Notes under the pieces: generated by a model
The model's input: the letters and a program-made list of their open reading frames with translations, nothing else
Database searches by the model: none
What the model was told of the DNA's origin: nothing
Shown here: one piece after another, positions 970 to 52,881 of the stretch
How positions within the stretch are numbered: the stretch's first letter is position 1
Layout of the letters: the number at the start of each line of letters is the position of its first letter
Made by a program: the position numbers and the translations under genes
Origin: Scenedesmus sp. PABB004
Lineage: Eukaryota
Assembly (NCBI GenBank): GCA_014905635.1
Contig: JABVCE010000029.1
Span: forward strand, 62,001 to 126,000
Direction: 5' to 3'
Length of the DNA stretch: 64,000 nucleotides

Positions 970-1720
970 GTGCGGTGCCACCACCGCCGCCACGGCTGCC
1001 GCCTCTGCCGCCGCGAGCGCCGCGATCTCTGGCACGGCGCTGTAGGCGATGGGCGGCGCCGCCTGCTGCGGCGCGGCGGGCGCGCGCTGGCCCTTGGCCT
1101 GCTGCGCGAGCCAGTGGTCAAAGTAGGGGCGCAGGTTTGTGCCGTAGCGGTGCTTCGGGTCGGCGGCCTCGAGCCAGTGCTCGCACTGCAGGATGAGCGC
1201 GGTGCTGTTGGCGGCGAGGCCCTGCGCCGCGCGGGAGGCCGGCGCACGGGGGCGGGCGGCGGCGCCGCGTGTGAGCGGCCGGCCGGCGCGGCGCGGCGTC
1301 GCGGCGGGCGTCGCGCGGCGCGGCGCGGCGCGGCAGCCCTCGCAGCTGCCGCGAGCGCGCGCGCCTCACCTTGCCGACGCGCGCGGCCGCCTTTTGGCCG
1401 CGCACCCAGCGCCAGTAGAGGCTGATGGAGCGCGTGAAGCCCTCCTCCACCTCGTCAGCCTCCTCCGGCGGCGGCGCGGCGCCCGGGAGCGGCGGCGGCA
1501 CCGCCGGCGCGCCAGGCTGCTGCTGCTCCCGCGCCGCCGCCGGCGGCGCGGCGGCGCTGCGGGCTTGGGCGGCCGCCAGCGCCACGGCCGCGCTGCGCGC
1601 GAGGGCGGCGCAGCCAAAGCTCTGCGGCGGCGCCTCCGCCGCTGCCGCCGCGCCCGGCGCCGCCGCCGGCTGCAGCGGGGGCTCTGCCGCCGCGGGCGCG
1701 CGGCCCGCCGGCCCCGGCAT
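1..1720 (-). CDS. IQM-family (IQ-motif-containing) protein, 3' end runs off window; spliced
   Basis: Spliced exons give LQCEHWLEAADPKHRYGTNLRPYFDHW ... RFFYW|LDEG...PRSRLECERVQYLTEAERDQLEVTVE, matching the plant IQM motifs HWLEAIDPRHRYG and FFYWLD; poly-Q insert and acidic tract. Confidence 0.8.
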
Positions 1721-2236
1721 GTGCCCGGCGGGTGTGTGCCCCTGCGTGGCGCGTGTTGGCGCTGCCAGATTCGGGCCGGGGCGCGCTCGATGCGGTGAGG
1801 GGTGTGCCCTGCGCGCGGGAGCACTGTCTTCTGTCTCAAGTGTCACCGGAGGAGCGCGCGGCTGTGTGGGCGCCGGGGCGCGCCGCGCGCTTCAAGCGCG
1901 ATCAATGTCACTGCGCCTGTGACGCGCGCGCTGGCCTGCGGTTCCCTGTCCTCTGCCATCGGTCAGACACGCCGCTGCCCCACTGACCCGTGACCGCGCC
2001 GCCGTGCGTCGCTCCCCCGCCCCGACGAGCGCGCACGCCGCCGCTGCTGCCCGCGGCGCCGCTGCAGGGGACGCCGCCTGCTGCCCTGCGCGCACGCCTG
2101 CCCGCGGCTCGTCGGTGGCGGCACTGCCCACGCCCACGCCGCATCCGCGCGGCGGCGGCGCGGCGGGGAGGCCGCGCGGCGCCGCAGCAGCGGACGCGCC
2201 GCGCCGCGTGCGCGGGCCGCGCCGGGCGCCGCAGCG

Positions 2237-2852
2237 ATGTCCACGCGCGGGCGCAACACCAACCTCAACAGGGAGCTCGCCAACGACTGGCAGGGCTGGG
2301 TGCGCAAGTGGAAGCGGATCCCCGTGCCCTGCGAGGACGGCTCCGGTTGGGCCAACAAGCCGGGCCACGCGCCGCTCAAGCTGCTGCGCTGGGTGCAGAC
2401 GGGTGCGGCACGCGCCGGCGGGGCGCGGCGGCGCCGGCGCGCGGCGCGGCGGCGGCGCCCGGGCGCGCACGACGCCCGCCGCGCGCCGCCCGCCGCGACG
2501 CGCAGAGGAGCGCACGGGCAAGCCGGGCGCCAAGCGGCACCCTGACATCACACCGGTGGGAGCGGCGCGCCGCGGCCGCCGCGGCAGCGGCGCGCGGGCG
2601 GCGCGCCGAGCGACCCGGCCGCCCACGCCCGTCGCCCGTCGCCCGCGCCGCTGTTGCTGGCGCGCCCCGCCAGGTCACGGATGTGAGCCTCGTGCCGGGC
2701 GGCCGCATGGGCCCCGCTGTGCAGGGCGGCGACGCCCCCAAGGTCGCCGACCCCACCGCGGCGCCGCCGCTCATCCAGCCCAGCAGCCAGGCGGCGCCGT
2801 CGGACGGCGCCGCGCCGGCGCCCGCAGCAGCGGGCGGCACGGGCCCGCCGCC

Positions 2853-2896
<44 letters not shown>

Positions 2897-3417
2897 CGGC
2901 ACCGGCAGCGGCCGGCGCCGCGCCGCTGCGGGTGGACGTCGCGGCCGGCGCGGCGGGGCCACCCGGCGGCGTCACGCCCAGCAGCGTGGCGCCGCCGTCG
3001 CTGCTCGCCGCCAGTGGCGGCGCCGCCGGCGTCGCCGCGCCCAGCCCGTCGGGCCTGACCGTGAGCTTCAGCGCCCAGCCCTCCGGCAGCCAGCCGGCCG
3101 GCGTCACGGGCAGGACGGCGAGCGAGTACACGGGCGGCACCGACAGCGAGGCGCTCGGCCGGCTGCCCCACGGCGCGGCGTCCGACTTCACCGGCGGTGC
3201 GCCGCGCCGCCCCTCGCTGCACTGCACGCGCGCGGCGCCGCCCCTCGCTGCACTGCACGCGCGCGGCGGCCGCCCGAGCGCCGCGGCGCGCGCGCGTGCC
3301 CACACGCCGCCCGCGCCGCGCCGCCGCCCCGCAGGCACCGACTCGATGGACATCGATGCCCTGGGGCAGCACAGCCAGGGCGCGGCGTCGGCGCAGCGGC
3401 GCGGCGGCGTCACCGCG

Positions 3418-3757: not shown

Positions 3758-6700
3758 TCACAGCGGCAGCACGCTCGGGCGCTTCACCGGCGCGCCCGCG
3801 AGGTACACGTCGCTCAGCGGCGCGGACGCGGGGGCGCCCGCGGCGGCGTCCTCCGTCAGCAGCTGGCGCCAGCGCGCCGCGTCGCCGGGCGGCAGCTCCT
3901 GGTCCAGGTCCTCCAGCCCCACCACGACCGTCGCGGACGGGCCGCCGCCGCGCGCGCCGCCCGGCGGCGGCATGCCGAGCAGGCCGCTCAGCAGGCCGCC
4001 CATGCCGCCGGCGCCGCCGCCGGCGCCGCCGCCGCCGCCCATGAGCGACCCGGCGACGCTGCTGATGAGGGGCTGCAGCGCGGGGTCGCTCGCGAGCTGG
4101 CCGGCCATCTGCAGCAGGCCGCCCATGCCGCCCGCGCCGCCGGGGCCGCCGCCGCCGCCGGGGCCGCCGGCGCCGCCCATCATCAGCTGCATCAGCCCGC
4201 CCAGGTCGCCGCCGGGCCCGCCGGCCGCGGCGCCGGCCGCCGGGCGCGGCCCCGCCGCGCCGGGCGCGCCGGGCGGGCCGCCCATCATGCCTCCCAGCAT
4301 CTGCATCAGGCCGGCCATGTCCGGCGCGCCCGCGGCGCCGCCGCCGCCGGGCGCCGCGCCCGGCGCGGGCGCGCGCGGCGGCGGCGCGGCGCGTGGCGGC
4401 GCGGCGCGCGGCGGCGCGGCGGCCGCGGCGCCGGCGGACGAGCCGGCGCCGCCCGCGGTGCTGCTGGCGCCGGCGTCGCCGGCGCCCGCCGCCTTGCGCT
4501 TGGCCGGCAGGCTGCCCGACTTCAGGCCCAGCCCCAGGCCGCGCGGCTGCCCCGCCGCGGCGCCGCCAGCGGGCGCCGTCGCCGCCGCTGTCGCCGCGGG
4601 GGCTGCTGCGGGGGCCGCCGCCGCCGCGGGCGCGCCGGGCGCGGCCGCGGCGGCCGCCGCGGCGCGCGCCGCGGCCGCCTGCGCCTGCCGCGCGGCCGCC
4701 TGCGCCTGCGCGCCCGCCTCGGCCGCGGCGCTCGCGGCCGCGGCGGCGGCGCCCGCGGCGTTTGCGGCCGCGCCGAGCACGCTGCCCAGGGGCGCGGCGT
4801 TGGGCAGCAGCACCTGCTGCACCGCGTGCGCGATGTCCAGGCCGTTGGCCTCGCGCCCCGCCGTCGCCTCGACCTCCTGCAGCCGCGCCTCGATGCCGCG
4901 CACGTTGGCGGTGATCGCCTGCGTCACCGCGCCGAGCACGCGGCCGACCGTCGCCGCGACCTGCCCGCTCGCCGCCGCGCTCGCGCTCGCGGCGGCCGCC
5001 TCAAACTGCCCGCTCGCGACCTGCTGCCGGTGCGCGCGCACCGCGCCCGCGACGTCGCTCGCGGCCTGCTGCAGCACGGGCGCGAGCGACGCGCTCAGCG
5101 CCGACGCGACCATCTCGGCCAGCGCCGCCCCGCTCGCGCCCGCGCCGCCCGCGCCCGCGCCCGCGCCGCCCGCGCCGGCTGCTGCGCCGGTGCTGGCGCC
5201 GGCACCGCGGCCGCTGGCGGCGGCGCGGGGGAGGCTGGCCTGGGGATACAGCGTGGGGAAGGCCGGCTCCAGGCCTGAGGGGCAGCGGGCAGGGGGGCGG
5301 GGAGCGTGTCGGCGGCGGCAGGGGAGGGCGGCGGCAAGGCAGCGGCGCGGCGGCGGCGCGGCGCGCACCGCTCGCGCCCTCGCGCAGCACGGCCGCGGCG
5401 TTGGCGGCGATGGCGACCGGGTTGCCCTGCACCGCGAGGCTGGCGGCCGACGCGGCGCGCGCGAGCTCCACCAGCAGCGCCGCGGCGGCCGCGAGCTGGC
5501 CGCTCAGGCCGTTGAGCGCCGCCTGCGTCGCGTGCGCGGCGGCGGCGCCCTGCTGCGCTGCGCCGGCGAGCTGCGACGCCGCGGCGCCGACCGCCGCCGC
5601 GAGCGGGCCGCCGAGGTAGGTCTGCGCGCGGGCGAGCAGCACCGACAGCGCCGCCAGCACCAGGCGCGCGTCCACGCTCGCGCCTGCGCGCGCGGCGGCC
5701 GCAGCAGCGGCGGCAGCACGGCGACAGTGTCAGCGCGTCTCCGAACAAGGAACGACGCAAGGGGGGAGACACCCGAGGGCGCTGGCGGCGGGCCGGCCGA
5801 CGGCGCCGAGCGGCGCCCGCCGGCCCGCGGGCGGGCCGCACCTTGGGACGCGACCGCGCCGCTGAGAAGGGCCTGCTGCTCCGCCGTGAGCGTCGCGCCG
5901 CCGAGGATGCTCTGCAACGCGTCCAGGAGCGCGCGCTGCAGCTGCTGCGCGCCTGCGCGACGGGGTGGGTGCGGCGGGCGCCTCGGCGCCGCGCCGCGCC
6001 GCCGCGTGGCCCGCGTGGCCCGCGCCCAGCTGCAGCGTGGCCCGCGCCCGCCGGAGCGTGGCCCGCGCGACCCGCACCCGCATCCGCCGGCGGCAGCCCC
6101 GGCGCCAGGGACGTCACGGGCATGACGGGAAACTCGCCCCCGGCCGACAGGCGGGCCAGCAGGTCGGCAATGCTCTGCAGCAGGTGCGCCGGCGGCGCGG
6201 CGCCGGGCGCGGCACCCGGCGCGGCGCCGGGCGCGGCGGTGGCGCCGCCCAGCGCGGAGAACACGCCCTGCAGCAGCTGCGGGGCGGGGCCGCGGCGGGC
6301 GCGCGTGAGGCGGGGGCGCGCGGCACGCAGGGAGGGGCGCGCGCCTGTGCGCGCCGCGCAAATCGTCGCAGCACACCCGGCTCAAGTCAGGCGGCAGCCC
6401 CGCGCCCTGCGGCTCCGCGCCCGCCGTGCCGGGCGCTGTGGGGCGGCGGCGGCGGCGGCGGCGTCACGGTGGGCTCGCGGCAGGCGAAGGCAGCAGCGGC
6501 AGGCGAAGGCAGCAGCGGCAGCGGCAGCGGCAGCGGCAGCGGCAGCAGCAGCAGCGGCGCCGGCGGGCGAGCGCGCACCCGGCGCGTCGGCCGGGCGCTC
6601 CACCAGGTGGATGGTGTTGCCATGCTCCACGCCTGCGGTCCGGGGCGGCGCCGGGCGTCGGCGGGCATGCATGCGGCGCGGCCCCGCCTGCGCCGCCCGG

Positions 6701-6971
6701 ACCGTTCCGCCGCACCCGCTTCTGCCAGCGTCGCGCCGTCCGCGATCACTCGTCCCCGAAAGATCAGGCGCTGGCGGTCCGCGGGCACGCCCAGCACGGA
6801 GGCGAGGAGCGCCTTGGCGTCGGCGCCGGTGGCCTGCGCGGCGGCGCGTGCGTGTGCGTCGGCGGGCCGCCGAGACCCGCGGGCCGCCGCCCCCGCCGCG
6901 TCCGCACTCACGCTGGGCTCTATCTCCACCTCGTGCACCGACTGGTCGAGCAGCTTGACCTTGAGCAACAT
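3758..6971 (-). CDS. BAG6: BAG6/CIP73-like protein with N-terminal ubiquitin-like domain
   Basis: MLLKVKLLDQSVHEVEI...VPADRQRLIFRGRVIADGATL...GVEHGNTIHLVER (UBL domain); C-terminal WRQLLTED...PLSDVYLAGAPVKR matches the BAG6 PLSDAYLSGMPAKRRK motif. Confidence 0.75.
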
Positions 6972-7155
6972 GCTGCCCGAGCGCCGCTGCCGCCGCCTGA
7001 GTGGGTCGCAGGCGCGCGATCGATTGCCGCGGCGCGGCTGGGCCTGTGCAGGGCCTGTGGTCTGCAGGGCCTTTGGACGCGGTGTGGCAGCGAGCGGCTG
7101 AGAGGCAACTGCCGTCACAACGCAACCGCGCGTGCCAAAACCGCGTGGCACTGGC

Positions 7156-8851
7156 TCAGCTGCACGCGACGTCGCCGCCGCCGCCGCCCGCCGCCGCCGC
7201 CGCGCCGCCGGCCTTGCGGCGCAGGGTGAGGCTGCCGGCCGAGTCCGAGGCGCGGCGCAGCACCGCGACCCAGGCAGAGGCCCAGCTGCCACTCGCCTCG
7301 CCCGCCAGCAGGCCGTCCAGCTCGGCGCCGGCGCCGGCGGGCGCCGAGGCCGGCGCGCCGCCCGCCGCCGCGCCGCCCGCCGCCTCGCCGCCCGCCGCGC
7401 CGCCGGCCGCGCCCGGCGCCGCCGCCGCGGCGGCGCCGCCCCCGGCCGCGCCGTCGGCTGCCGAGGCGGCGGCGCCGCCCGGCGAGTCCTGGTGCAGCAG
7501 CGCGAGCAGGCGCGCCAGGATGACATCTTGCCAGGCGGGGATGAGCAGCAGGCCCGCGCCGTGCGCGGCGGCGGGGTTGTACAGCACCTGGGGTTGAGGG
7601 GCGGCGCGCGGGCGCGCGGGCGCGCGGGCGCGTGGGTGCGCAGGCGCGGGGGTTGCGGCGCGGGCAGACGCGCCCGCCGGGGCCCGCGCGCCGCCGCCGG
7701 GGGCCCGCGCGCCACCACCGCCGCGCCCCACCTGCGCGCTCGTGTGGTCCTCGAGCCAGCGCCGCACGTGCAGCGTGGGGCAGAGGATGTCGGCGCCGCT
7801 GAGCACCACGAGCGTGCGGGGCGGGAGGTCCTCGGTCCAGAGGTTGATGCTCGTCCAAAAGAAGGAGCGGCAGAAGGAGCGCGCACAGTGAATCTCGCTG
7901 CTCAGCAGCAGGATCAGCCCGTCCGTGAGCAGCTGCGCGCGGCGGCGACGCCGGGTCGGGCCGCGGCCGGCCGTGCGCGCGGCGCGGCGCGGGCCGCAGC
8001 GCGCGGCGCGGCGGCGCGGGCCGCAGCGCGCGGCGCGGGCCGCAGCGCGCGGCGCGGGCCGCAGCGCGCGGCGCTGCGCGGCGCGTGCCTGGCCGCAGAG
8101 GTGTCGTGAGTAGAGGAAGAACTTGACCAGGCAGGGCTGGTACATGGACAAGCAGACCTGGCCAGGCCGAGGGCCGGCCGGGCGGGCGCGCGGGCGCGCA
8201 GGCGGGGCCGTGGGCACCCAGGCGCGCGGCGGCCGCGCGGCGCGGCGGCGGAGGAGCGCGCGCCCGGGTGCGCGGCGCCGCTGCTGCTCCCGCCGCGGCG
8301 CGCCGGGTCGTGCCGGGTCGCACCGGGTCAATGAGCGCGAGCGTGTGCACCGCGGACGGCCAGCGCTTGACGAAGCGCGCGGCGACGCAGGTGCCTGGCG
8401 GCGCGGCGGGTGGCGCGCGCGTCGGGCGGCGGCGGCGGCACGCGCGGCGCGCGGCGTGCGGCGGCGGGGCGGGGCGGGGCGGGGCGGGGCGCCCGCGCAC
8501 CGTAGCTGTGGCCGATGATCGCCGCGCTGGCCACACCGTGGCGGGACATGGCCTCCAGCGTGAGCTCGGCGCAGTCGTCGACGCTGGGAAAGGTCCTGCG
8601 CGCGGCGCCGCCGGTGCCGGCGGCAGCGGGGCGGCAGCGGCAGCGGCGGTTGAGGGCAGCCGCGCCGCGCGCGGGGCCGCCGCGTGCGGGGCCGCCGAGC
8701 GCCGCGGCGCCGCACCGCGTGAGGCGCATCGACACGTGCTTCCACGACGGCAGCAGCAGCGGGTGCGCGTCGGGCAGCGCGGCGAGCTTCCACACGAGCC
8801 CCACGTATGGCAGCAGCCCCGCGCCGACGCCGTGCAGCAGCACAAGCGGCA

Positions 8852-13245: not shown

Positions 13246-14090
13246 CGCGGCCTGGCGCGGCGCGGGTGCGGCCTCATCACCGCCGGGGAGGTCTGGCTGC
13301 TCTCATGGCGCGCGAGCTGCGGGGCGCGGGCGGGCGAGGGCGGAGATTTTGTCAGCCGACGGGGTCGCGCGATGGCCGGCGCCAATCTTGCTGGCCGGCG
13401 CGCCCGCGGCGGGAGGCCACCGCGCGGGCGGCGCACTGGGCCGCTGGGAGTTAGGGTGTGCCCCCCGTGCGGCGGCCAGGCGCGCGCGCGGCCGGCGCGC
13501 CTCGCCGCGGCGCACCCTGTGATTCTCGCGCGGCCACGGCGCGCGCGGGTCTGTGGCGCTCGAGGGAGGTTTGTGTGATCACCGGGCGTCTCTCGACGAT
13601 GCGCGCGGGGCGCGGCTTGCCACCAGGCGCGTGATTGGGTGCGCTGAGGCGGGGGTGGCAGTCTTGGGGTGGCTTGTGGGGCTCGTTGTGGTGTGAGGGG
13701 CGCTTGGGTAGGCGGTCGGGGCCTGGGAATGATCATGGGCGGCCTGGGGGCTGCAAATATAGCGGCCAGCGATGGCGAATCGTCATTGTCACTTGGCGAA
13801 AAGTGCCAAATCGCCCAGGACTTTGGCCACAGGCATCACCCAAACTCCGCTGCCCACCGCAAGTGTCCGCCTGTGCGCTGGAACTCCAGGTGCGCGCGCC
13901 GGCGGGCTGGGCGGCGCGCCTGACCACGCTGCTGACCGTGCGCCGCCTGCACCCTGGCCGCCTCCCTCGCAGGGCCGGCGGCGCCGCCCTGCGCCCAGGC
14001 GAGTCGTAGGCGCGGCGCGGGGCACGCCCGACCGCGCGCCCGCTGCGCGCGGCGGCGCCACCCGGCGCCGGGTTTGCCCGCGCGCTGTGC
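13246..14090 (+). repeat. Long direct repeat, copy 1 (about 845 bp)
   Basis: Near-identical to 14806-15678; identical shadow ORFs appear twice in the ORF track. Confidence 0.95.
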
Positions 14091-14449
14091 CGGCCGCGCA
14101 GGCACGGCGTGCCGTGCGGCGCTGCAGACCCCGCCGCCAGTGCTGCCGCTGCCGCCGCGCAGGTCCGCAGCCGATCAGTGCTGCGTGAGATTGGACTGCT
14201 CCGGCGGCGCGCGGCTCATCGGCGGCTCCCGCGGTGCGCGCCGCGGCGCGGCACCGGCGGTGGCGGCGAGGCGTGCCTCGCCGGCGTGGGCGTGTGGCGC
14301 ACCCGTGGGCGTGTGACGCACCCGGCCGCTGGGGTCGGCCTCGGTGCTGCATGCGCAGCATGCGCGCTGTGAGCGCTTGGCTCGCTGCGCTGCAAGCCGA
14401 GCCAAGCACTCTGCTATGGCGTCGCCGCGCGACTTCCAAACACGAGAGA

Positions 14450-14695
14450 AAAACCTGGCGCGAGGCCGCTCCGAGAGCTGCAGCGCTGTGCGCGCGGCGC
14501 GTGGTGTGCGCGCGGAGTCGTTGTCCAGCAACTGCCAGCGCGTGTGGCCCCAGTGCAACGTCATCCACAGCGACTGGCGGGCGCATCCGGCTCGACCCCG
14601 AGCGCGCCAAGAAGCTGATGTTCAGCTGTGCCAACGAGCGGCTTGGCATCCGGAGCCGCGGCGAGGAGGCCTTCCAAGGCTGGCCCGAGGCCTGA
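14450..14695 (+). pseudogene. Frameshifted hAT transposase C-terminal dimerisation-domain remnant
   Basis: Across frames: ELQRCA / RRVV / SSNCQRVWPQCNVIHSDWR / RLDPERAKKLMFSCANERL, compared with the hAT consensus PELQ..A.RVLS..SSS.CERNWS....IHSK.RNRL...RA.KLV....N.RL. Confidence 0.7.
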
Positions 14696-14805
14696 GATGC
14701 AAGCAGCGGGCGCCTGCCGCCGCCCCGCTGAGCGGGGAGCGGCGGCGCGTGCTCGCGCGCACGCGGGCAGCGCGCGCCGCGCGGCTGCGCGTGCGCGTAC
14801 GCCTA

Positions 14806-15686
14806 CGCGGCCTGGCGCGGCACGGGTGCGGCCTCATCGCCGCCGGGGAGGTCTGGCTGCTCTCATGGCGCGCGAGCTGCGGGGCGCGGGCGGGCGAGGG
14901 CGGAGATTTTGTCAGCCGACGGGGTCGCGCGATGGCCGGCGCCAATCTTGCTGGCCGGCGCGCCCGCGGCGGGAGGCCACCGCGCGGGCGGCGCACTGGG
15001 CCGCTGGGAGTTAGGGTGTGCCCCCCGTGCGGCGGCCAGGCGCGCGCGCGGCCGGCGCGCCTCGCCGCGGCGCACCCTGTGATTCTCGCGCGGCCACGGC
15101 GCGCGCGGGTCTGTGGCGCTCGAGGGAGGTTTGTGTGATCACCGGGCTCGAGGGAGGTTGGTGTGATCACCGGGCGTCTCTCGACGATGCGCGCGGGGCG
15201 CGGCTTGCCACCAGGCGCGTGATTGGGTGCGCTGAGGCGGGGGTGGCAGTCTTGGGGTGGCTTGTGGGGCTCGTTGTGGTGTGAGGGGCGCTTGGGTAGG
15301 CGGTCGGGGCCTGGGAATGATCATGGGCGGCCTGGGGGCTGCAAATATAGCGGCCAGCGATGGCGAATCGTCATTGTCACTTGGCGAAAAGTGCCAAATC
15401 GCCCAGGACTTTGGCCACAGGCATCACCCAAACTCCGCTGCCCACCGCAAGTGTCCGCCTGTGCGCTGGAACTCCAGGTGCGCGCGCCGGCGGGCTGGGC
15501 GGCGCGCCTGACCACGCTGCTGACCGTGCGCCGCCTGCACCCTGGCCGCCTCCCTCGCAGGGCCGGCGGCGCCGCCCTGCGCCCAGGCGAGTCGTAGGCA
15601 CGGCGCGGGGCGCGCCCGACCGCGCGCCCGCTGCGCGCGGCGGCGCCACCCGGCGCCGGGTTTGCCCGCGCGCTGTGCTGACCCTG
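14806..15686 (+). mobile_element. Long direct repeat, copy 2; probable 3' subterminal region of a hAT element ending in ...TGACCCTG
   Basis: Matches copy 1 plus a 28-bp tandem duplication (15119-15174); directly follows the transposase remnant; ends in CCCTG (CAGGG on the minus strand, like hAT termini). Confidence 0.6.
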
Positions 15687-29335: not shown

Positions 29336-32300
29336 ATGGCCACCGAGGGCGGCGGCGGCGGGGCCGGCGCGGGCAAGCGCCGCGCGCGCGAGGAGCGGCG
29401 CCGCGCCGCGCTCAAGGCGCGTGCGCGCGCCGAGAAGCGCGCGGCGACGCGCAGCGCGCAGGAGGGCGCGGAGATCGCGGAGCTGGAGGTGGCCATCGCG
29501 GCGGGCGCGCCGCCGCCGGGCAGCAACCCGCTCGCCGCGCCGGCGGCCGCCGCCGGTGCCGGCGGCGGGGCGAGCGGCGGCTACGCCGGCGCGCGGTCGT
29601 TTGACGACCTCCCCCTCAGCGCCTACACCAAGGCCGCGCTGCGCGGCGCGGGCTACACGACGCTGACGGCCATCCAGCGCGCGGCGCTGCCGCACGCGCT
29701 CGCGGGGCGCGACGTGCTCGGCGCCGCCAAGACGGGCAGCGGCAAGACGCTGGCCTTCCTCATCCCGGTGCGCGCGCGGGGTGCGGCGGCGCGTGGGCCG
29801 TGGGCGTGTGCGGTGTGTGCGTGGGGCTGGGCGCGCACAGGGCCGCCGCGGCCGCCGCGCGCGGCCGGCCGCGCGAGCTCGCCCGCACGCTCGCCCGCCC
29901 CGCGCCGCGGGGGCGCCGCCGCCAGGTGGTGGAGAAGCTCTACCGCCTCAGCTGGACGCGGCTCGACGGCCTCGGCGCGCTCGTGCTCACGCCGACGCGC
30001 GAGCTGGCGCTGCAGATCTTCGCCGAGCTCGTCAAGGTGCGGCGGCGCGCTGCGTGCTGCGTGTGCCGTGTGCTGCGTGTACCGTGCGAGTGTGCGCGTG
30101 TGTGTGTGCGCGACGCCAGCCGCCGCCGGGGCGGTGATGATCCGCAACAAATGGGTAATTTGCGTCGGCCGCCTGGCCGACACACTGCCATCTGACGCCC
30201 GTGGCTGCGGCTGCTGCTGGCGCGCGCGTGTGCTGTGCTGTGCTGCGTGTGGCTGTGGCTGCGCGGTGCCGGCGAGGATGCGAACACCCGACGTGACCCA
30301 ACGCTGAGCGTCAAAATTTTAGCTTTGTTTTAATTCCTGAGCCGTCGCCGCCGCCTGTTCCGTGCACGTGGGCTCGCGCGTGCTGCGTGCTGCGTTGCGC
30401 GTGCGTGGCGTGTGTCGCGCGCGGCCGCCGATGATGCAAAAGTCCACAGAAATCCAACGCTGAGTTCATTCAGTGAGGAGCGGACAAATACGAGCTTTTT
30501 AAATCTGACGGCGCCGCTGTCGCTGCTGCTGCTGTTGTTTCTGCTGCTGCCGCCGCGTGGGCGCGGCGCCCCGCCGCGGCGCGCGCCGACGCCGCCCCGC
30601 CCTCGCCCACGTGCGCGCGCGCGCTTGCAGGTCGGGCGGCGCCACGACCTCTCCGCGGGGCTGCTCATCGGCGGCAAGGACGTCGCGGAGGAGGCGAGCC
30701 GCGTCAACGCGATGAACATCCTCGTCGCCACGCCCGGTGCGGCCGCGGCGCGCCGCCGACGCGCGCGTCTTGCACCGCACCGCACCGCCCGCCGCGCCGC
30801 GCGCACGCGCGCCCACCCCGCCGCGCCCACCTGGCCCTCCTCCTCCTGCTCCGCCCGCCCCTCCCTCCCCGCGGCCAGGCCGTCTGCTGCAGCACATGGA
30901 CGAGACGCCCGGGTTTGACCCCGCGGGGCTGCAGCTGCTGGTGCTCGACGAGGCCGACCGCATCCTCGACATGGGCTTTGCCGCGACGCTCGACGCAATC
31001 CTGGCCAACCTCCCGCGCGACGGCCGGCAGACGCTGCTCTTCAGCGCGACGCAGGCGCGTGCGGCCGCGCGCCGGCGCGTGTGTTTGTGGGTGTGCGAGC
31101 GCGCGCGCGAGGGGCCGCCGCACGCCGCCGCGTCCCGCGCCTCACGCTCACCCTGCCGCGTCGTGCGCCGCGCAGACCAAGAGTGTGCGCGACCTCGCGC
31201 GCCTCAGCCTGAGCGCGCCGGAGTTCCTCGCCGTGCACAGCGACGCGGCGGCGCCGACGCCGCTGAAGCTGCGCCAGGCGGCGATGGTCGTGGGCCTCGG
31301 CGAGAAGGTCGACGTGCTGTGGGGGTTCATAAAGACCCACCTGTCGGCCAAGACCATCATCTTCCTCTCAACCTGCAAGCAGGCGCGCCCGCCCGCGCGC
31401 CCTCGCGCCGCCACGCGCGCCGCCCGCTCGTCCCGCGCCCGCCCCGCGCCGCGCGCGGCGCCCCGCGCTCACAGCAGCCCCCGCCACCGCCCCGCTCCCT
31501 CGCCGCTCGCCGCCGCCCTTCAGGTCCGCTTCATGCACGAGGCCTTCCGCAAGCTCCGCCCCGGCACGCCGCTGCGCGCGCTGCACGGCGGCATGAAGCA
31601 GGGCAAGCGCATGGCCGTGTTCGACGCCTTCAATGCGCGCCCCCGCCCCGGCGCGCCCGCCGCGTCGGGCGGCGGCGTGCTGTTTGCGACGGACGTCGCC
31701 GCGCGGGGGCTGGACTTCCCAGACGTCGACTGGGTCGTGCAGGCGGACTGCCCCGAGGACGTGGCCGCCTACATCCACAGGCGCGGCGCCCGCGGCGGCG
31801 GCGGCACCCGCGGCGGCGGCACCCGCGGCGGCGCCCGCGGCGGGGGGTGCACTGCTCGCTGCGCAGCGCCCGGCACCTGACGCCGCCGCCGCCGCCGCCC
31901 GCCGCCGCCGCGGGCGGGGCGCAGGGTCGGCCGCACCGCGCGCTACACGTCGTCGGGGCGCGCGCTGCTGCTGCTGCTGCCGAGCGAGCGCGACGCGATG
32001 CTGGCGCAGCTCGCGGACGCCAAGGTCCCGGTGTCGATGCTGCGCCACAACCCGGCCAAGGTCACGCCGGTCGGTCCGTCCTTGAGCGCGCTGCTGTCCA
32101 AGAACGCCGAGCTCAAGGCCTTTGCGCAGGCCGCGCTCGTCGCGTACGCGCGGTCCGTGTTCCTGCAGCCCAACAAGGCCGTCTTCAACGCGGCGGCGCT
32201 GCCGCTGGACGACTACGCGCAGAGCCTCGGGCTGCTCGCCGCGCCGCAGCTCAAGTTCCTGCGCCGCGCAGGCGCGCGCGTGGTCGGCGAGGTCGTGCTC

Positions 32301-51869: not shown

Positions 51870-52881
51870 GCCCCCCGCGGCGCCGCGGCGCCCGCCGCGC
51901 CGCCCGTGGCACGACAACGCGACGACGTCGACCTGAATCCGCGCGCCTGGGGCCGCCTGAGCGGGCGGCGCTAGAGGGAGGCGAGCTGCTGCTGCCCTCT
52001 CTTGACGGCTGGCGCGGCCGTCTACGTTTGCGGGCTACGCCGGCCAGCCGGACGGACGCGGAGAGTGCGGGCGCGAGGGGCGCGGGCGGGGCATCACCAC
52101 CGGCGCGCGCTTGTTACTTTCCTGGCTCGCAGCGCCTGCGACGTGGGCGGAACGCATGCACCTCGCCGATGCCGCCGGCCGGAGGGCCGCCGCCGCCGCC
52201 CGCCGCCGCCGGCCGCGCCGCCGCCGCGCGCTTCGCTCGGTGACGCCCGCGCCGCGCGCGAACGAAGCAACCACAACCCCTCCCCCGTCGCCGGCAGTCA
52301 CGCCAGAGTGAGGGCGTGAAGCAGCAGCTGGCTGCGCGCGCGAGGGAGAGAGCCGCTGCGCGTCGCCGGCCGGCGGCGTGCTGGCTGCGAACCACGCCGG
52401 CTGCAGCGCGCGGGCGCTCCCACGTCGTTCGTTACTGAGCAGCGCCGGTCAAAGTTGCAGTGAATCAATGCGGCCGGCAGCAGGGAGGCGATGATGAAAA
52501 ATCGAGCGGCGCTCACGGGAGCGCCGCCAACGCGCGCAGGTGCATGAAATGCGGCGGCCATGGCGGCCTGCCGGGTGCAGCGGCCGGGACAGCGCGGCCA
52601 GCTGCTCCACCGCAGAAGGAACGCCCCACAATAAGAACGCTGGTTTGCAAAACCATGTCAAACCAATTGGTTTGACCCGCCGCGCACGCGCGCGGCGGGC
52701 GGCAGCGGCGCCGCGCGCACCAGTGCGCGGCGTCCGCTCGTGCTTGCGCCCCCCCCCCCTCACTCTTCCCCTCTCGCGCCCGCATGGGCGCCAGCGCTCT
52801 GCAGCAATTGCTGCAGAGTGTGTGTTAACACACACACCGCGCGCGGCGCCCTGCACAGTGACAGTGACGCGCGCGGCGCGC

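Follow-up and report, generated by a model that had tools for sequence, protein, structure and literature searches.

What fills the second intron of this helicase gene, and why is that intron so much longer than the introns on either side of it? Within the 64-kb stretch of DNA that was analysed (hereafter the window), the intron and its two bordering exons lie as follows.

29926..30036, + strand: exon 2 of DDX10/DBP4, 37 codons, with motif Ia PTRELA and a Pfam DEAD match
30037..30630, + strand: intron 2, GT...AG, 594 nt, the putative host of three snoRNA genes
30631..30736, + strand: exon 3 of DDX10/DBP4, whose sole match among solved structures is human DDX10 (2PL3), residues 120-154

The intron boundaries can be read from the sequence, with GT at 30037 and AG at 30629-30630. 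Exons 1-4 aligned to residues 26-82, 84-117, 120-154 and 156-212 of the human DDX10 chain 2PL3 with neither gap nor overlap, the whole of exon 2 corresponding to residues 83-119 and the split codon to residue 155. Since exon 2 ends at residue 119 and exon 3 starts at residue 120, the junctions of intron 2 are exact. Among solved structures, human DDX10 was the top match for exon 2 (39.8 bits, runner-up 24.3) and for exon 4 (30881-31054; 71.8 bits, runner-up 54.6), and it matched exon 3 with 42.6 bits and no second match. Exon 1 taken alone scored slightly higher against Has1 than against DDX10 among these structures; the C-terminal exon has relatives in Tetradesmus obliquus, Raphidocelis subcapitata, Chlamydomonas and Chlorella, and its relatives were named DDX10/DBP4, with HAS1 appearing only at E 1e-6, and Pfam found DEAD and CTE_SPB4 domains in the host protein. 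Judged by these matches, the host is a DDX10/DBP4 orthologue, closer to that protein than to other DEAD-box helicases whose C-terminal extension is of the SPB4 type. In yeast, the orthologue Dbp4 works on duplexes between U14 snoRNA and rRNA.

The sequence-only reading had assigned this intron to DDX10 as its intron 2 and described it as about 600 nt long and far longer than its neighbours. The exon matches agree on the host, the intron comes second when counted from the likely start codon, and its 594 nt compare with 158 nt (29768-29925) and 142 nt (30737-30878) for the flanking introns. Intron 2 would be four times the length of its neighbours because three snoRNA genes lie inside it, and we consider it very probable, from the sequence features listed below, that a polycistronic cluster of three box C/D snoRNA genes is hosted by intron 2 of the DDX10/DBP4 gene in this chlorophycean. 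The predicted genes, sno1 to sno3, and their predicted guides are as follows.

30129..30200, + strand: sno1, a U16/snoZ101-like box C/D snoRNA, 72 nt; terminal stem 30129-30133/30196-30200, C box 30134-30140, D box 30192-30195
30152..30165, + strand: sno1 D' guide, 14 nt; 13 Watson-Crick pairs plus one G-U pair, or 14 Watson-Crick pairs
30164..30181, + strand: sno1 internal 7-bp hairpin over the D' box (GTCGGCC GCCT GGCCGAC), an inverted repeat present in both the MFE and the centroid fold
about 30270..30350, + strand: sno2, a box C/D snoRNA of about 80 nt belonging to no Rfam family; 3' end ambiguous (30344-30353)
30322..30335, + strand: sno2 D guide, a 14-nt perfect complement of LSU rRNA AAUUAAAACAAAGC, perfect in 11 of the 15 loci that contain this part of the LSU
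30426..30513, + strand: sno3, a SNORD36/U36 homologue (Rfam SNORD36), 88 nt; terminal stem 30426-30430/30509-30513, C box 30431-30437, D' box 30460-30463, C' box 30473-30479, D box 30505-30508
30444..30458, + strand: sno3 D' guide, complementary over 12-15 nt to 18S GUUGGAUUUCUG(UGG), which adjoins the target of the D guide on its 3' side
30489..30502, + strand: sno3 D guide, a 14-nt complement of 18S UUAAAAAGCUCGUA

The three low-GC islands all lie on the strand of the gene, as tandem units of about 150 nt each, and GC-rich spacers of 69 and 76 nt separate the snoRNA genes. The GC content of sno1, sno2 and sno3 was 0.625, 0.537 and 0.483, compared with 0.74-0.81 in the spacers and 0.79 in the window; the sno3 body contains the lowest and the sno2 body the third-lowest 60-nt GC window of the whole 64 kb. 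The description of these islands as AT-richer therefore stands, as does the claim that each contains C and D boxes and a terminal stem, some of the boxes being imperfect. Compared with the C-box consensus RUGAUGA, sno1 agrees at 7/7 letters (GUGAUGA; GTGATGA in the DNA), sno3 at 6/7 (AUGAUGC; ATGATGC) and sno2 at 5/7 (AGGAUGC, 30275-30281, with the core GAUG kept), and each has a CUGA D box (CTGA in the DNA; 30337-30340 in sno2). As for the internal boxes, sno3 has both D' (CTGA) and C' (GTGAGGA), sno2 has D' only (CTGA, 30304-30307), and sno1 has a degenerate D' and no recognisable C'. The MFE folds contain 5-bp terminal stems (GGGCG/CGCCC in sno1, CGGCG/CGCCG in sno2, where the stem is kept in an ambiguous register, and CGCCG/CGGCG in sno3), which are weak and unremarkable evidence because the flanks are so GC-rich. 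Fold energies compared with shuffles gave z-scores of -1.6, +0.4 and -1.2 for sno1, sno2 and sno3, none of them significant.

In the rRNA of other eukaryotes, four of the six guide positions found a box-register antisense partner of at least 10 nt, with position 5 facing the target. These four guides measure 12-15 nt and end 0-2 nt upstream of a D or D' box. The sequence-only reading had described 13-14-nt complements to conserved rRNA, one in each island; three of the four guides are these, each 14 nt long, and the fourth, of 12-15 nt, had been missed. GC content was 0.28-0.44 in the four guide regions with targets, and 0.64 and 0.73 in the two without, in a genome of 79% GC. For those two, the sno1 D guide and the sno2 D' guide, no conserved target was found in the rRNA loci of other eukaryotes, and by sequence both look inactive. 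An Rfam comparison, suggested along with the sequence-only reading, gave a score above threshold for sno3, a score below the cut-off for sno1 and no family for sno2.

The sno1 D' guide, AAUGGGUAAUUUGCGUC, is the snoZ101 consensus letter for letter, and 17 consecutive letters are identical. Its position 5 (T30161) stands opposite the first A of CGCAAAUUACCC in 18S rRNA, equivalent to Arabidopsis A440; this nucleotide is the first A of C-AAA-U and was placed by the Arabidopsis rows for C439, A441, A442 and U443. In yeast this site is 18S Am436. In Arabidopsis A440 has been measured as methylated (PMC8053127), which agrees with the D+5 placement proposed earlier for guide 1. Both the guide and the A440 target are shared with U16/snoZ101 (RF00358) and Arabidopsis SnoR15/U16. 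In contrast to the family, sno1 has CGGC rather than CUGA as its D' box (30166-30169, 2/4 letters, in the Rfam alignment register), this box lies inside the 7-bp hairpin, and between D' and D the body falls 18 nt short of the model. The score against snoZ101 was 26.1 bits, where the cut-off is 44; the search covered 851 nt and gave E 0.03. Since this is under the RF00358 gathering score, sno1 is named U16/snoZ101-like and not a family member by Rfam's rule.

Against SNORD36 (RF00049), sno3 scored 34.2 bits with a cut-off of 30, covering positions 1-77 of the 77 in the model, and by this measure it is a member of the SNORD36/U36 family, although its C box ends in C where that of SNORD36 ends in A. 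Position 5 of its D guide (T30500) stands opposite the first A after UU, yeast 18S Am619. This A corresponds to Arabidopsis A623 (placed by the U622 row and by Table 1; PMC8053127), which has been measured as methylated with U36 as its guide, and the earlier D+5 placement of guide 3 is thus upheld. The D guide ACGAGCUUUUUAA before CUGA and the A623 target are common to the U36 family (yeast snR47, Arabidopsis U36 and O. tauri Ot-CDsno3), and in a by-eye comparison Ot-CDsno3 also shares the C' box GUGAGGA and AUACGAGCUUUUUAA with sno3 (PMC7671301).

Where a single sno3 guide had been recognised before, the D guide is retained and a second 18S guide, at the D' box, is now added. Position 5 of this predicted D' guide (C30455) faces an 18S G located 15 nt 3' of the A623-equivalent, presumably human 18S Gm683. 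The corresponding Arabidopsis nucleotide, G638, is unmethylated (PMC8053127). The target is situated on the margin of a variable part of 18S, where only 14 of 86 rRNA loci of other eukaryotes pair over at least 10 nt and 38 of the 86 over at most 4 nt, and the prediction hinges on the alga's own 18S reading GUUGGAUUUCUGUGGAC after CUCGUA. In the SNORD36 family the D' consensus GAAUUUCUUcac pairs with LSU GUGAAGAAAUUC, whereas the sno3 D' guide pairs with 18S instead and does not address the A of this LSU segment; U36 variants from plants and from O. tauri likewise differ in the D' guide (PMC8053127, PMC7671301).

The second guide had been claimed to match conserved rRNA, which is confirmed, and its target can now be specified as an LSU uridine. 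Position 5 of the sno2 D guide (A30332) is opposite the second U of AAUUAAAACAAAGC, equivalent to Arabidopsis 25S U2143 (2123 in locus L027), and we take this uridine to adjoin the adenine methylated in yeast as m1A2142. Arabidopsis U2143 is unmethylated (PMC8053127). For O. tauri, the sno2 guide string does not occur among the supplementary entries, and the target table lists no U198x site in 25S (PMC7671301). Literature searches found no paper naming Um3624, Um3625, 28S-U3624, 28S-U3625, Um2141 or Um2143, and no Chlamydomonas RiboMeth-seq study. An Rfam search with sno2 alone returned a chance CRISPR-repeat (E 4.2) as its only match, and a scan of genome contigs with the sno2 guide plus D box gave more than 118 bacterial or archaeal chance matches and nothing informative.

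Within the cluster, sno2 is 71% identical to sno3 over 48 nt at a spacing of 156, identity between their spacers is 76% (spacing 152), and the two genes are collinear except for a 16-nt gap that removes the C' box. Judged by this alignment, sno2 is a shortened tandem paralogue of sno3. The two box-proximal letters of its D guide differ from those of sno3 and are included in the perfect LSU 14-mer.

When the four guides were shuffled, 0, 1, 5 and 2 of 5000 trials attained the conserved length seen in the real guide (1 of 5000 for the sno2 D guide, a value that overstates the surprise because the U36 guide from which it would descend has an 18S target similar to the LSU segment). Across both strands of the window, 3 of 224 CTGA sites were preceded in register by a conserved complement of at least 11 nt, and all three are in intron 2. 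In both of these controls a complement was counted as conserved if it occurred in at least 5 loci; without the conservation filter, non-rRNA flanks and simple repeats in the loci left the control uninformative. Segments with a conserved complement of at least 12 nt numbered about 21 in the window by our own grouping, four of them within the 386 nt of this cluster. The complements of sno1 D' and sno3 D supplied the pattern by which the 86 loci had been fetched, so that the presence of these two complements in all 86 is circular; the sno2 D and sno3 D' guides, which lay outside the fetch pattern, still match conserved LSU and 18S segments. In locus L027 the matched sites fell inside SSU_rRNA_eukarya and LSU_rRNA_eukarya. 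Viral contigs scanned for the 18S pattern gave no match.

The sequencing runs listed with this stretch comprise four metagenome DNA runs and no RNA run. Metagenome contigs of a close relative were available from two runs of one study, with one useful contig per run. The listed differences of this relative numbered 8 in 208 spacer nt versus 2 in 241 snoRNA nt (Fisher one-sided p = 0.03, from one relative only and with some events adjoining each other), and no box and no guide was changed. Other metagenome matches, around 30514-30569, were of low complexity and came from other organisms.

By analogy with plant and algal clusters, we infer that the three snoRNAs are co-expressed with the host mRNA, processed from its transcript and active in methylation. 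The host pre-mRNA would be transcribed and the intron or precursor cut, and trimming would then proceed back to the snoRNPs formed on each C/D kink-turn with Snu13, Nop56, Nop58 and fibrillarin. Each guide would pair with pre-rRNA, and fibrillarin would methylate the nucleotide opposite guide position 5: the A440-equivalent of 18S for sno1 D', the A623-equivalent of 18S for sno3 D, the 18S G 15 nt downstream for sno3 D', and the LSU U equivalent to Arabidopsis 25S U2143 for sno2 D. The two sno3 guides could clamp one continuous 18S stretch of about 29 nt. For its part, sno2 may have arisen as a tandem duplicate of a U36-type unit, followed by loss of the C' box and retargeting from 18S to LSU. 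We give roughly even chances to the joint reading in which sno2 is a newly retargeted guide near its origin, a U36-type copy directing a lineage-specific Um, with sno3 swapping its LSU guide for a second 18S guide. The switch in sno2 would then have required a 3-nt insertion and a few D-guide substitutions, and the lineage would carry a Um of its own at the U2143-equivalent and a Gm via sno3 D'.

A different account would accept sno1 and sno3 as genuine and treat sno2 as a decaying duplicate, or pseudo-snoRNA, whose match to the LSU follows from its descent. The segment UUAAAAAGC, targeted in 18S, and the segment UUAAAACAAAGC of the LSU are indeed alike, and sno2 is without the 16-nt segment bearing the C' box, has a C box of 5/7 letters and no Rfam family, and has a drifted D' guide, now at GC 0.64 and lacking a conserved target; in addition, the predicted site is unmethylated in Arabidopsis (PMC8053127), no U198x appears in the O. 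tauri 25S target table (PMC7671301), and the contig of the relative differs at 30345, in the putative 3' stem. However, the perfect 14-mer stands in exact D+5 register before an intact CUGA and includes the two letters unlike sno3, the relative is unchanged throughout 30276-30340, and the C-box core GAUG and the terminal stem are kept. The D guide is still at GC 0.28 in a 79% GC genome beside a drifted D' region, which argues for selection on the D guide. We therefore regard decay of sno2 as unlikely, though worth keeping in mind, and an active sno2 guide as the better account.

The origin of the transcripts can also be read in another way, with real snoRNAs made from their own intronic promoter or a separate non-coding transcript and not from DDX10 pre-mRNA. 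Plants and O. tauri do have independent polycistronic clusters, and 10 of the 12 O. tauri clusters are intergenic, but the two intronic ones are uncapped, as expected of host-transcript processing (PMC7671301). Together with the position of all three genes on the sense strand, wholly within a precisely bounded intron and separated by short GC-rich spacers (69 and 76 nt), this makes independent transcription quite improbable. It is scarcely credible that the islands are chance AT-rich patches or repeat remnants without RNA function: although flanks so rich in GC are expected to yield terminal stems by chance and no fold z-score was significant, sno3 matches Rfam above the gathering score, four rRNA complements stand in box register where 3 of the 224 CTGA sites of the window do so, all in intron 2, and guides and spacers contrast in both composition and polymorphism. 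A polycistronic host intron is thus the reading that we prefer.

On this preferred reading, three unannotated non-coding genes missed by an ORF view are added to the gene model, together with four rRNA positions at which 2'-O-methylation is predicted in a chlorophycean alga, two of which lack it in Arabidopsis. In compact form, sno2 and sno3 illustrate how a guide may acquire a new target once its gene has been duplicated in tandem. A ribosome-biogenesis helicase as host fits the known tendency of snoRNAs toward ribosome-biogenesis genes, in which 33% of the intronic snoRNAs of O. tauri are found (PMC7671301).

The predicted arrangement has close counterparts in plants and algae. Six Arabidopsis snoRNAs (SnoR19, SnoR22, U24, U36, SnoR44 and SnoR29) have both guides on sites 11-18 nt apart (PMC8053127), and the predicted sno3 sites are likewise 15 nt apart on one strand, so that each guide could give extra pairing for the other. 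The Arabidopsis U36 pair lies in 25S (A2221/G2237; PMC8053127), whereas the sno3 pair lies in 18S. In O. tauri, cluster 3 (Ot-CDsno36, 37 and 38) occupies intron 1 of the RNA helicase gene ostta04g00970 (PMC7671301, Table S3). As in intron 2 here, three C/D snoRNAs (81-90 nt there) share one intron of a DEAD-box-domain helicase gene in a green alga, and the middle snoRNA is without a conserved counterpart, as with sno2 (PMC7671301). The cluster 3 snoRNAs are not orthologous to sno1-3 because their guides differ (25S U142, an orphan and 25S A574), and the O. tauri U36 homologue sits in a gene other than the cluster 3 helicase (PMC7671301). The intronic snoRNA gene clusters reported from Chlamydomonas reinhardtii (Chen et al. 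2008, Genetics 179:21) have the same kind of organisation and belong to the same algal class. Clusters of C/D snoRNAs within introns are thus documented as the norm for green algae, in Chlamydomonas as well as in Ostreococcus, where one helicase intron has three of these genes; the cluster in intron 2 adds members to this established arrangement and leaves the understanding of snoRNA organisation unchanged.

Pfam placed DEAD domains in exons 1 and 2 of the + strand helicase gene and an SPB4-type C-terminal extension farther along. Searches against solved structures returned the N-terminal domain of human DDX10 (2PL3) as the best match for exon 2 (39.8 bits; next chain 24.3), exon 3 (42.6 bits; no next chain) and exon 4 (71.8 bits; next chain 54.6), and exon 1, taken alone, was marginally nearer Has1 than DDX10. 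Full-length relatives of the C-terminal exon were green-algal proteins whose source names are 'DEAD-box helicase 32' or DDX10/DBP4; the top-ranking named ones come from Tetradesmus obliquus, at 82% identity, and Raphidocelis subcapitata, at 70%, and HAS1 did not appear among them before E 1e-6. The exon matches and the named algal relatives identify the host as a chlorophycean DDX10/DBP4 orthologue, the gene that the sequence-only reading had proposed; the alga probably belongs close to the Sphaeropleales. Exons 1-4 align with 2PL3 residues 26-82, 83-119, 120-154 and 156-212, residue 155 being a split codon, and this alignment fixes the intron borders exactly. The introns, and the predicted box C/D snoRNA genes within intron 2, are as follows:

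29768-29925, + strand, intron 1 (158 nt)
30037-30630, + strand, intron 2 (594 nt)
30129-30200, + strand, sno1
~30270-30350, + strand, sno2
30426-30513, + strand, sno3
30737-30878, + strand, intron 3 (142 nt)

Intron 2 had been described as about 600 nt long and longer than its neighbours, which agrees with its 594 nt against 158 and 142 nt. Farther along, the DDX10 frame (…SATQ / TKSV…) is kept if exon 4 ends at 31054 (window 31049-31060); judged by sequence and ORF list, the following intron would then start with GC (GCGCGT), not GT, with GTGCGG 4 nt downstream, and may be a GC-AG intron.

The three islands were correctly read as AT-richer: in a window of 79% GC, the bodies of sno1, sno2 and sno3 have a GC content of 0.625, 0.537 and 0.483, against 0.74-0.81 in the intron 2 spacers, and among 60-nt windows across the 64 kb the lowest GC lies in the sno3 body and the third-lowest in the sno2 body. 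C and D boxes are present in each, as had been claimed, but they are not all perfect. sno1 has a perfect C box (GTGATGA) and D box (CTGA) with merely CGGC as D'; sno2 has AGGATGC as its C box, two CTGA and no C'; sno3 has ATGATGC (C), CTGA (D'), GTGAGGA (C') and CTGA (D). The expected terminal stems, 5 bp long, appear in all three MFE folds, though stems of this kind form easily where the flanks are GC-rich, and the fold energies of sno1-sno3 were no better than those of shuffled sequences. GC content is 0.28-0.44 in the four guide regions that have a target, and 0.64 and 0.73, near background, in the two that have none; this contrast is an internal control from composition. The second lowest-GC 60-nt stretch of the window is elsewhere, at 52614-52680 (GC 0.43), and contains nested palindromes (GGTTTGCAAAACC; CAAACCAATTGGTTTG), with a GATGATGA motif ~130 nt upstream near 52490; it had no Rfam match at gathering thresholds.

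At gathering thresholds, Rfam found one RNA in the whole window, SNORD36 at 30426-30514 (34.2 bits, cut-off 30, full model). A permissive scan of intron 2 added snoZ101 at 30126-30203 (26.1 bits, cut-off 44, E 0.03), and the sno1 guide AAUGGGUAAUUUGCGUC equals the snoZ101 consensus in every letter. sno2 matched no family in either scan. The Rfam check named in the sequence-only reading thus bears out sno3, leaving sno1 below its family cut-off and sno2 unmatched.

The guides were compared with 86 metagenome rDNA loci, belonging to organisms other than the alga, in which sequences complementary to the sno1 D' and sno3 D guides lie 155-185 nt apart. The presence of these two complements in all 86 loci is circular, being the fetch criterion; the non-circular part is their co-occurrence at 155-185 nt in 18S, together with the matches of the other two guides to conserved targets. 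One locus, L027, is a complete rDNA unit by Rfam (SSU 1601-3398, 5.8S, LSU 4085-7422), with both fetch sites within the SSU. Fifteen loci include the LSU part relevant to sno2: in 11, the sno2 D guide (30322-30335) complements LSU AAUUAAAACAAAGC perfectly over 14 nt (LSU position 2120-2133 in L027), and the remaining 4 read CAUAGC at this site. The sno3 D' guide pairs with 18S GUUGGAUUUCUG(UGG), immediately after the D-guide target ...CUCGUA; among the 86 loci this pairing reaches at least 10 nt in 14 and at least 12 nt in 8, with a single locus at 15 nt; in 38 it spans no more than 4 nt because the target sits where a variable region begins or ends. A 13-14-nt rRNA complement was found in every island, as had been claimed, and sno3 D' is a fourth guide that had been overlooked. 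No conserved target was found in the fetched loci for the sno1 D or sno2 D' guide (30172-30191 and 30284-30303, both GC-rich); these second guides could be dead or serve non-rRNA targets (snRNA, tRNA, mRNA).

Registers were set from rows of the Arabidopsis RiboMeth-seq table, where 18S reads C439-A440-A441-A442-U443 and U622-A623, and both A440 (guides SnoR15/U16) and A623 (guide U36) are methylated (PMC8053127). With CGGC taken as the sno1 D' box, following the Rfam alignment, these rows give Arabidopsis 18S A440 as the predicted target of sno1 D' and A623 as that of sno3 D, so that the earlier D+5 placement of both guides falls on measured sites. The predicted sno3 D' target is the G 15 nt beyond A623, G638, which is unmethylated in Arabidopsis. 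With human A668 as the U36 target, this G would correspond to human Gm683, an existing 18S site that has a guide. Of the 15 loci that include this LSU part, 6 have the canonical U36 LSU target 78-79 nt 3' of the sno2 target U, and the exact motif is missing from the other 9. This spacing and the Arabidopsis 25S rows (U2138 U2139 A2140 A2141 U2142 U2143 A2144 ... C2148 ... G2152) place the predicted sno2 target at 25S U2143, unmethylated in Arabidopsis and without a predicted guide. In yeast, A440 and A623 correspond to Am436 and Am619, and the position of U2143 would lie next to the adenine methylated as m1A2142.

Chance matches were assessed by shuffling, counting only complements that begin within guide positions 1-3 and occur in at least 5 loci. 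The observed length was reached in 0 of 5000 shuffles for sno1 D', 5 of 5000 for sno3 D', 2 of 5000 for sno3 D and 1 of 5000 for sno2 D, the last overstating the surprise because that guide derives from a U36 guide and the two targets are alike. When all 127,952 20-mers from the two strands of the window were scanned, conserved complements of at least 12 nt fell into about 21 separate segments, as grouped by the analyst, 4 of them in intron 2. Only 3 of the 224 CTGA sites in the window are preceded by a 20-mer with a complement of at least 11 nt, namely sno2 D, sno3 D' and sno3 D.

A close relative was represented by two contigs, of 467 and 404 nt, one from each of two freshwater metagenome runs in a single study; they span 30083-30531 with 7 listed substitutions and 3 indels. 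Boxes and guides are all unchanged. Eight differences fall within the spacers, 208 nt in all (the 8-nt deletion at 30262, and 30113, 30202, 30366, 30394, 30395, 30403 and 30407), and two within the snoRNAs, 241 nt in all (30142, immediately 3' of the C box of sno1, and 30345, in the 3' flank of sno2); the one-sided Fisher p of 0.03 is weak support because there is a single relative and the events partly adjoin. The (GCT)n / GC-rich intron tail at 30514-30569 matched a very large number of metagenome contigs of unrelated organisms, the summed depth rising to ~11,000, and this pile-up was rejected as a sign of conservation, being a low-complexity artefact.

Intron 2 is built of three tandem units. 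At a spacing of 156, sno2 and sno3, taken with their 5' flanks, share 71% identity over 48 nt; the spacers upstream of them share 76% at a spacing of 152, and the spacer preceding sno1 is related to both. Aligned to sno3, sno2 lacks the 16 nt carrying the C' box, and its D guide has a 3-nt insertion and a few other differences from that of sno3. Apparent retargeting of the sno2/sno3 pair is the one mildly novel element. Another tandem duplication in the window, at 13246-15445, consists of two recurring blocks, each 300 nt or longer (spacings 1560 and 1588 nt, 99-100% identity), including a low-GC 60-mer at 13752-13811 and 15340-15399; it is either a very recent event or an assembly artefact.

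The best reading of intron 2 is a polycistronic box C/D cluster that would be processed out of the host pre-mRNA, and we infer expression, processing and methylation for sno1-sno3. One continuous 18S strand could pair with both sno3 guides, the 5' guide taking the 3' segment and the 3' guide the 5' segment, an arrangement like that of Arabidopsis snoRNAs using both guides on sites 11-18 nt apart (PMC8053127). Intronic C/D clusters are already known in green algae. In Ostreococcus tauri, 72 snoRNAs are intronic, a third of which lie within ribosome-biogenesis genes, and two of the 12 clusters are in introns; its cluster 3, like intron 2 here, holds three C/D snoRNAs in an intron (intron 1) of an RNA helicase gene (PMC7671301), but their targets differ from those predicted for sno1-sno3. 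In a plant snoRNA survey most land-plant families had no identifiable algal homologues, which makes the presence of U36 and of a U16-type guide in a chlorophycean alga a modest addition.
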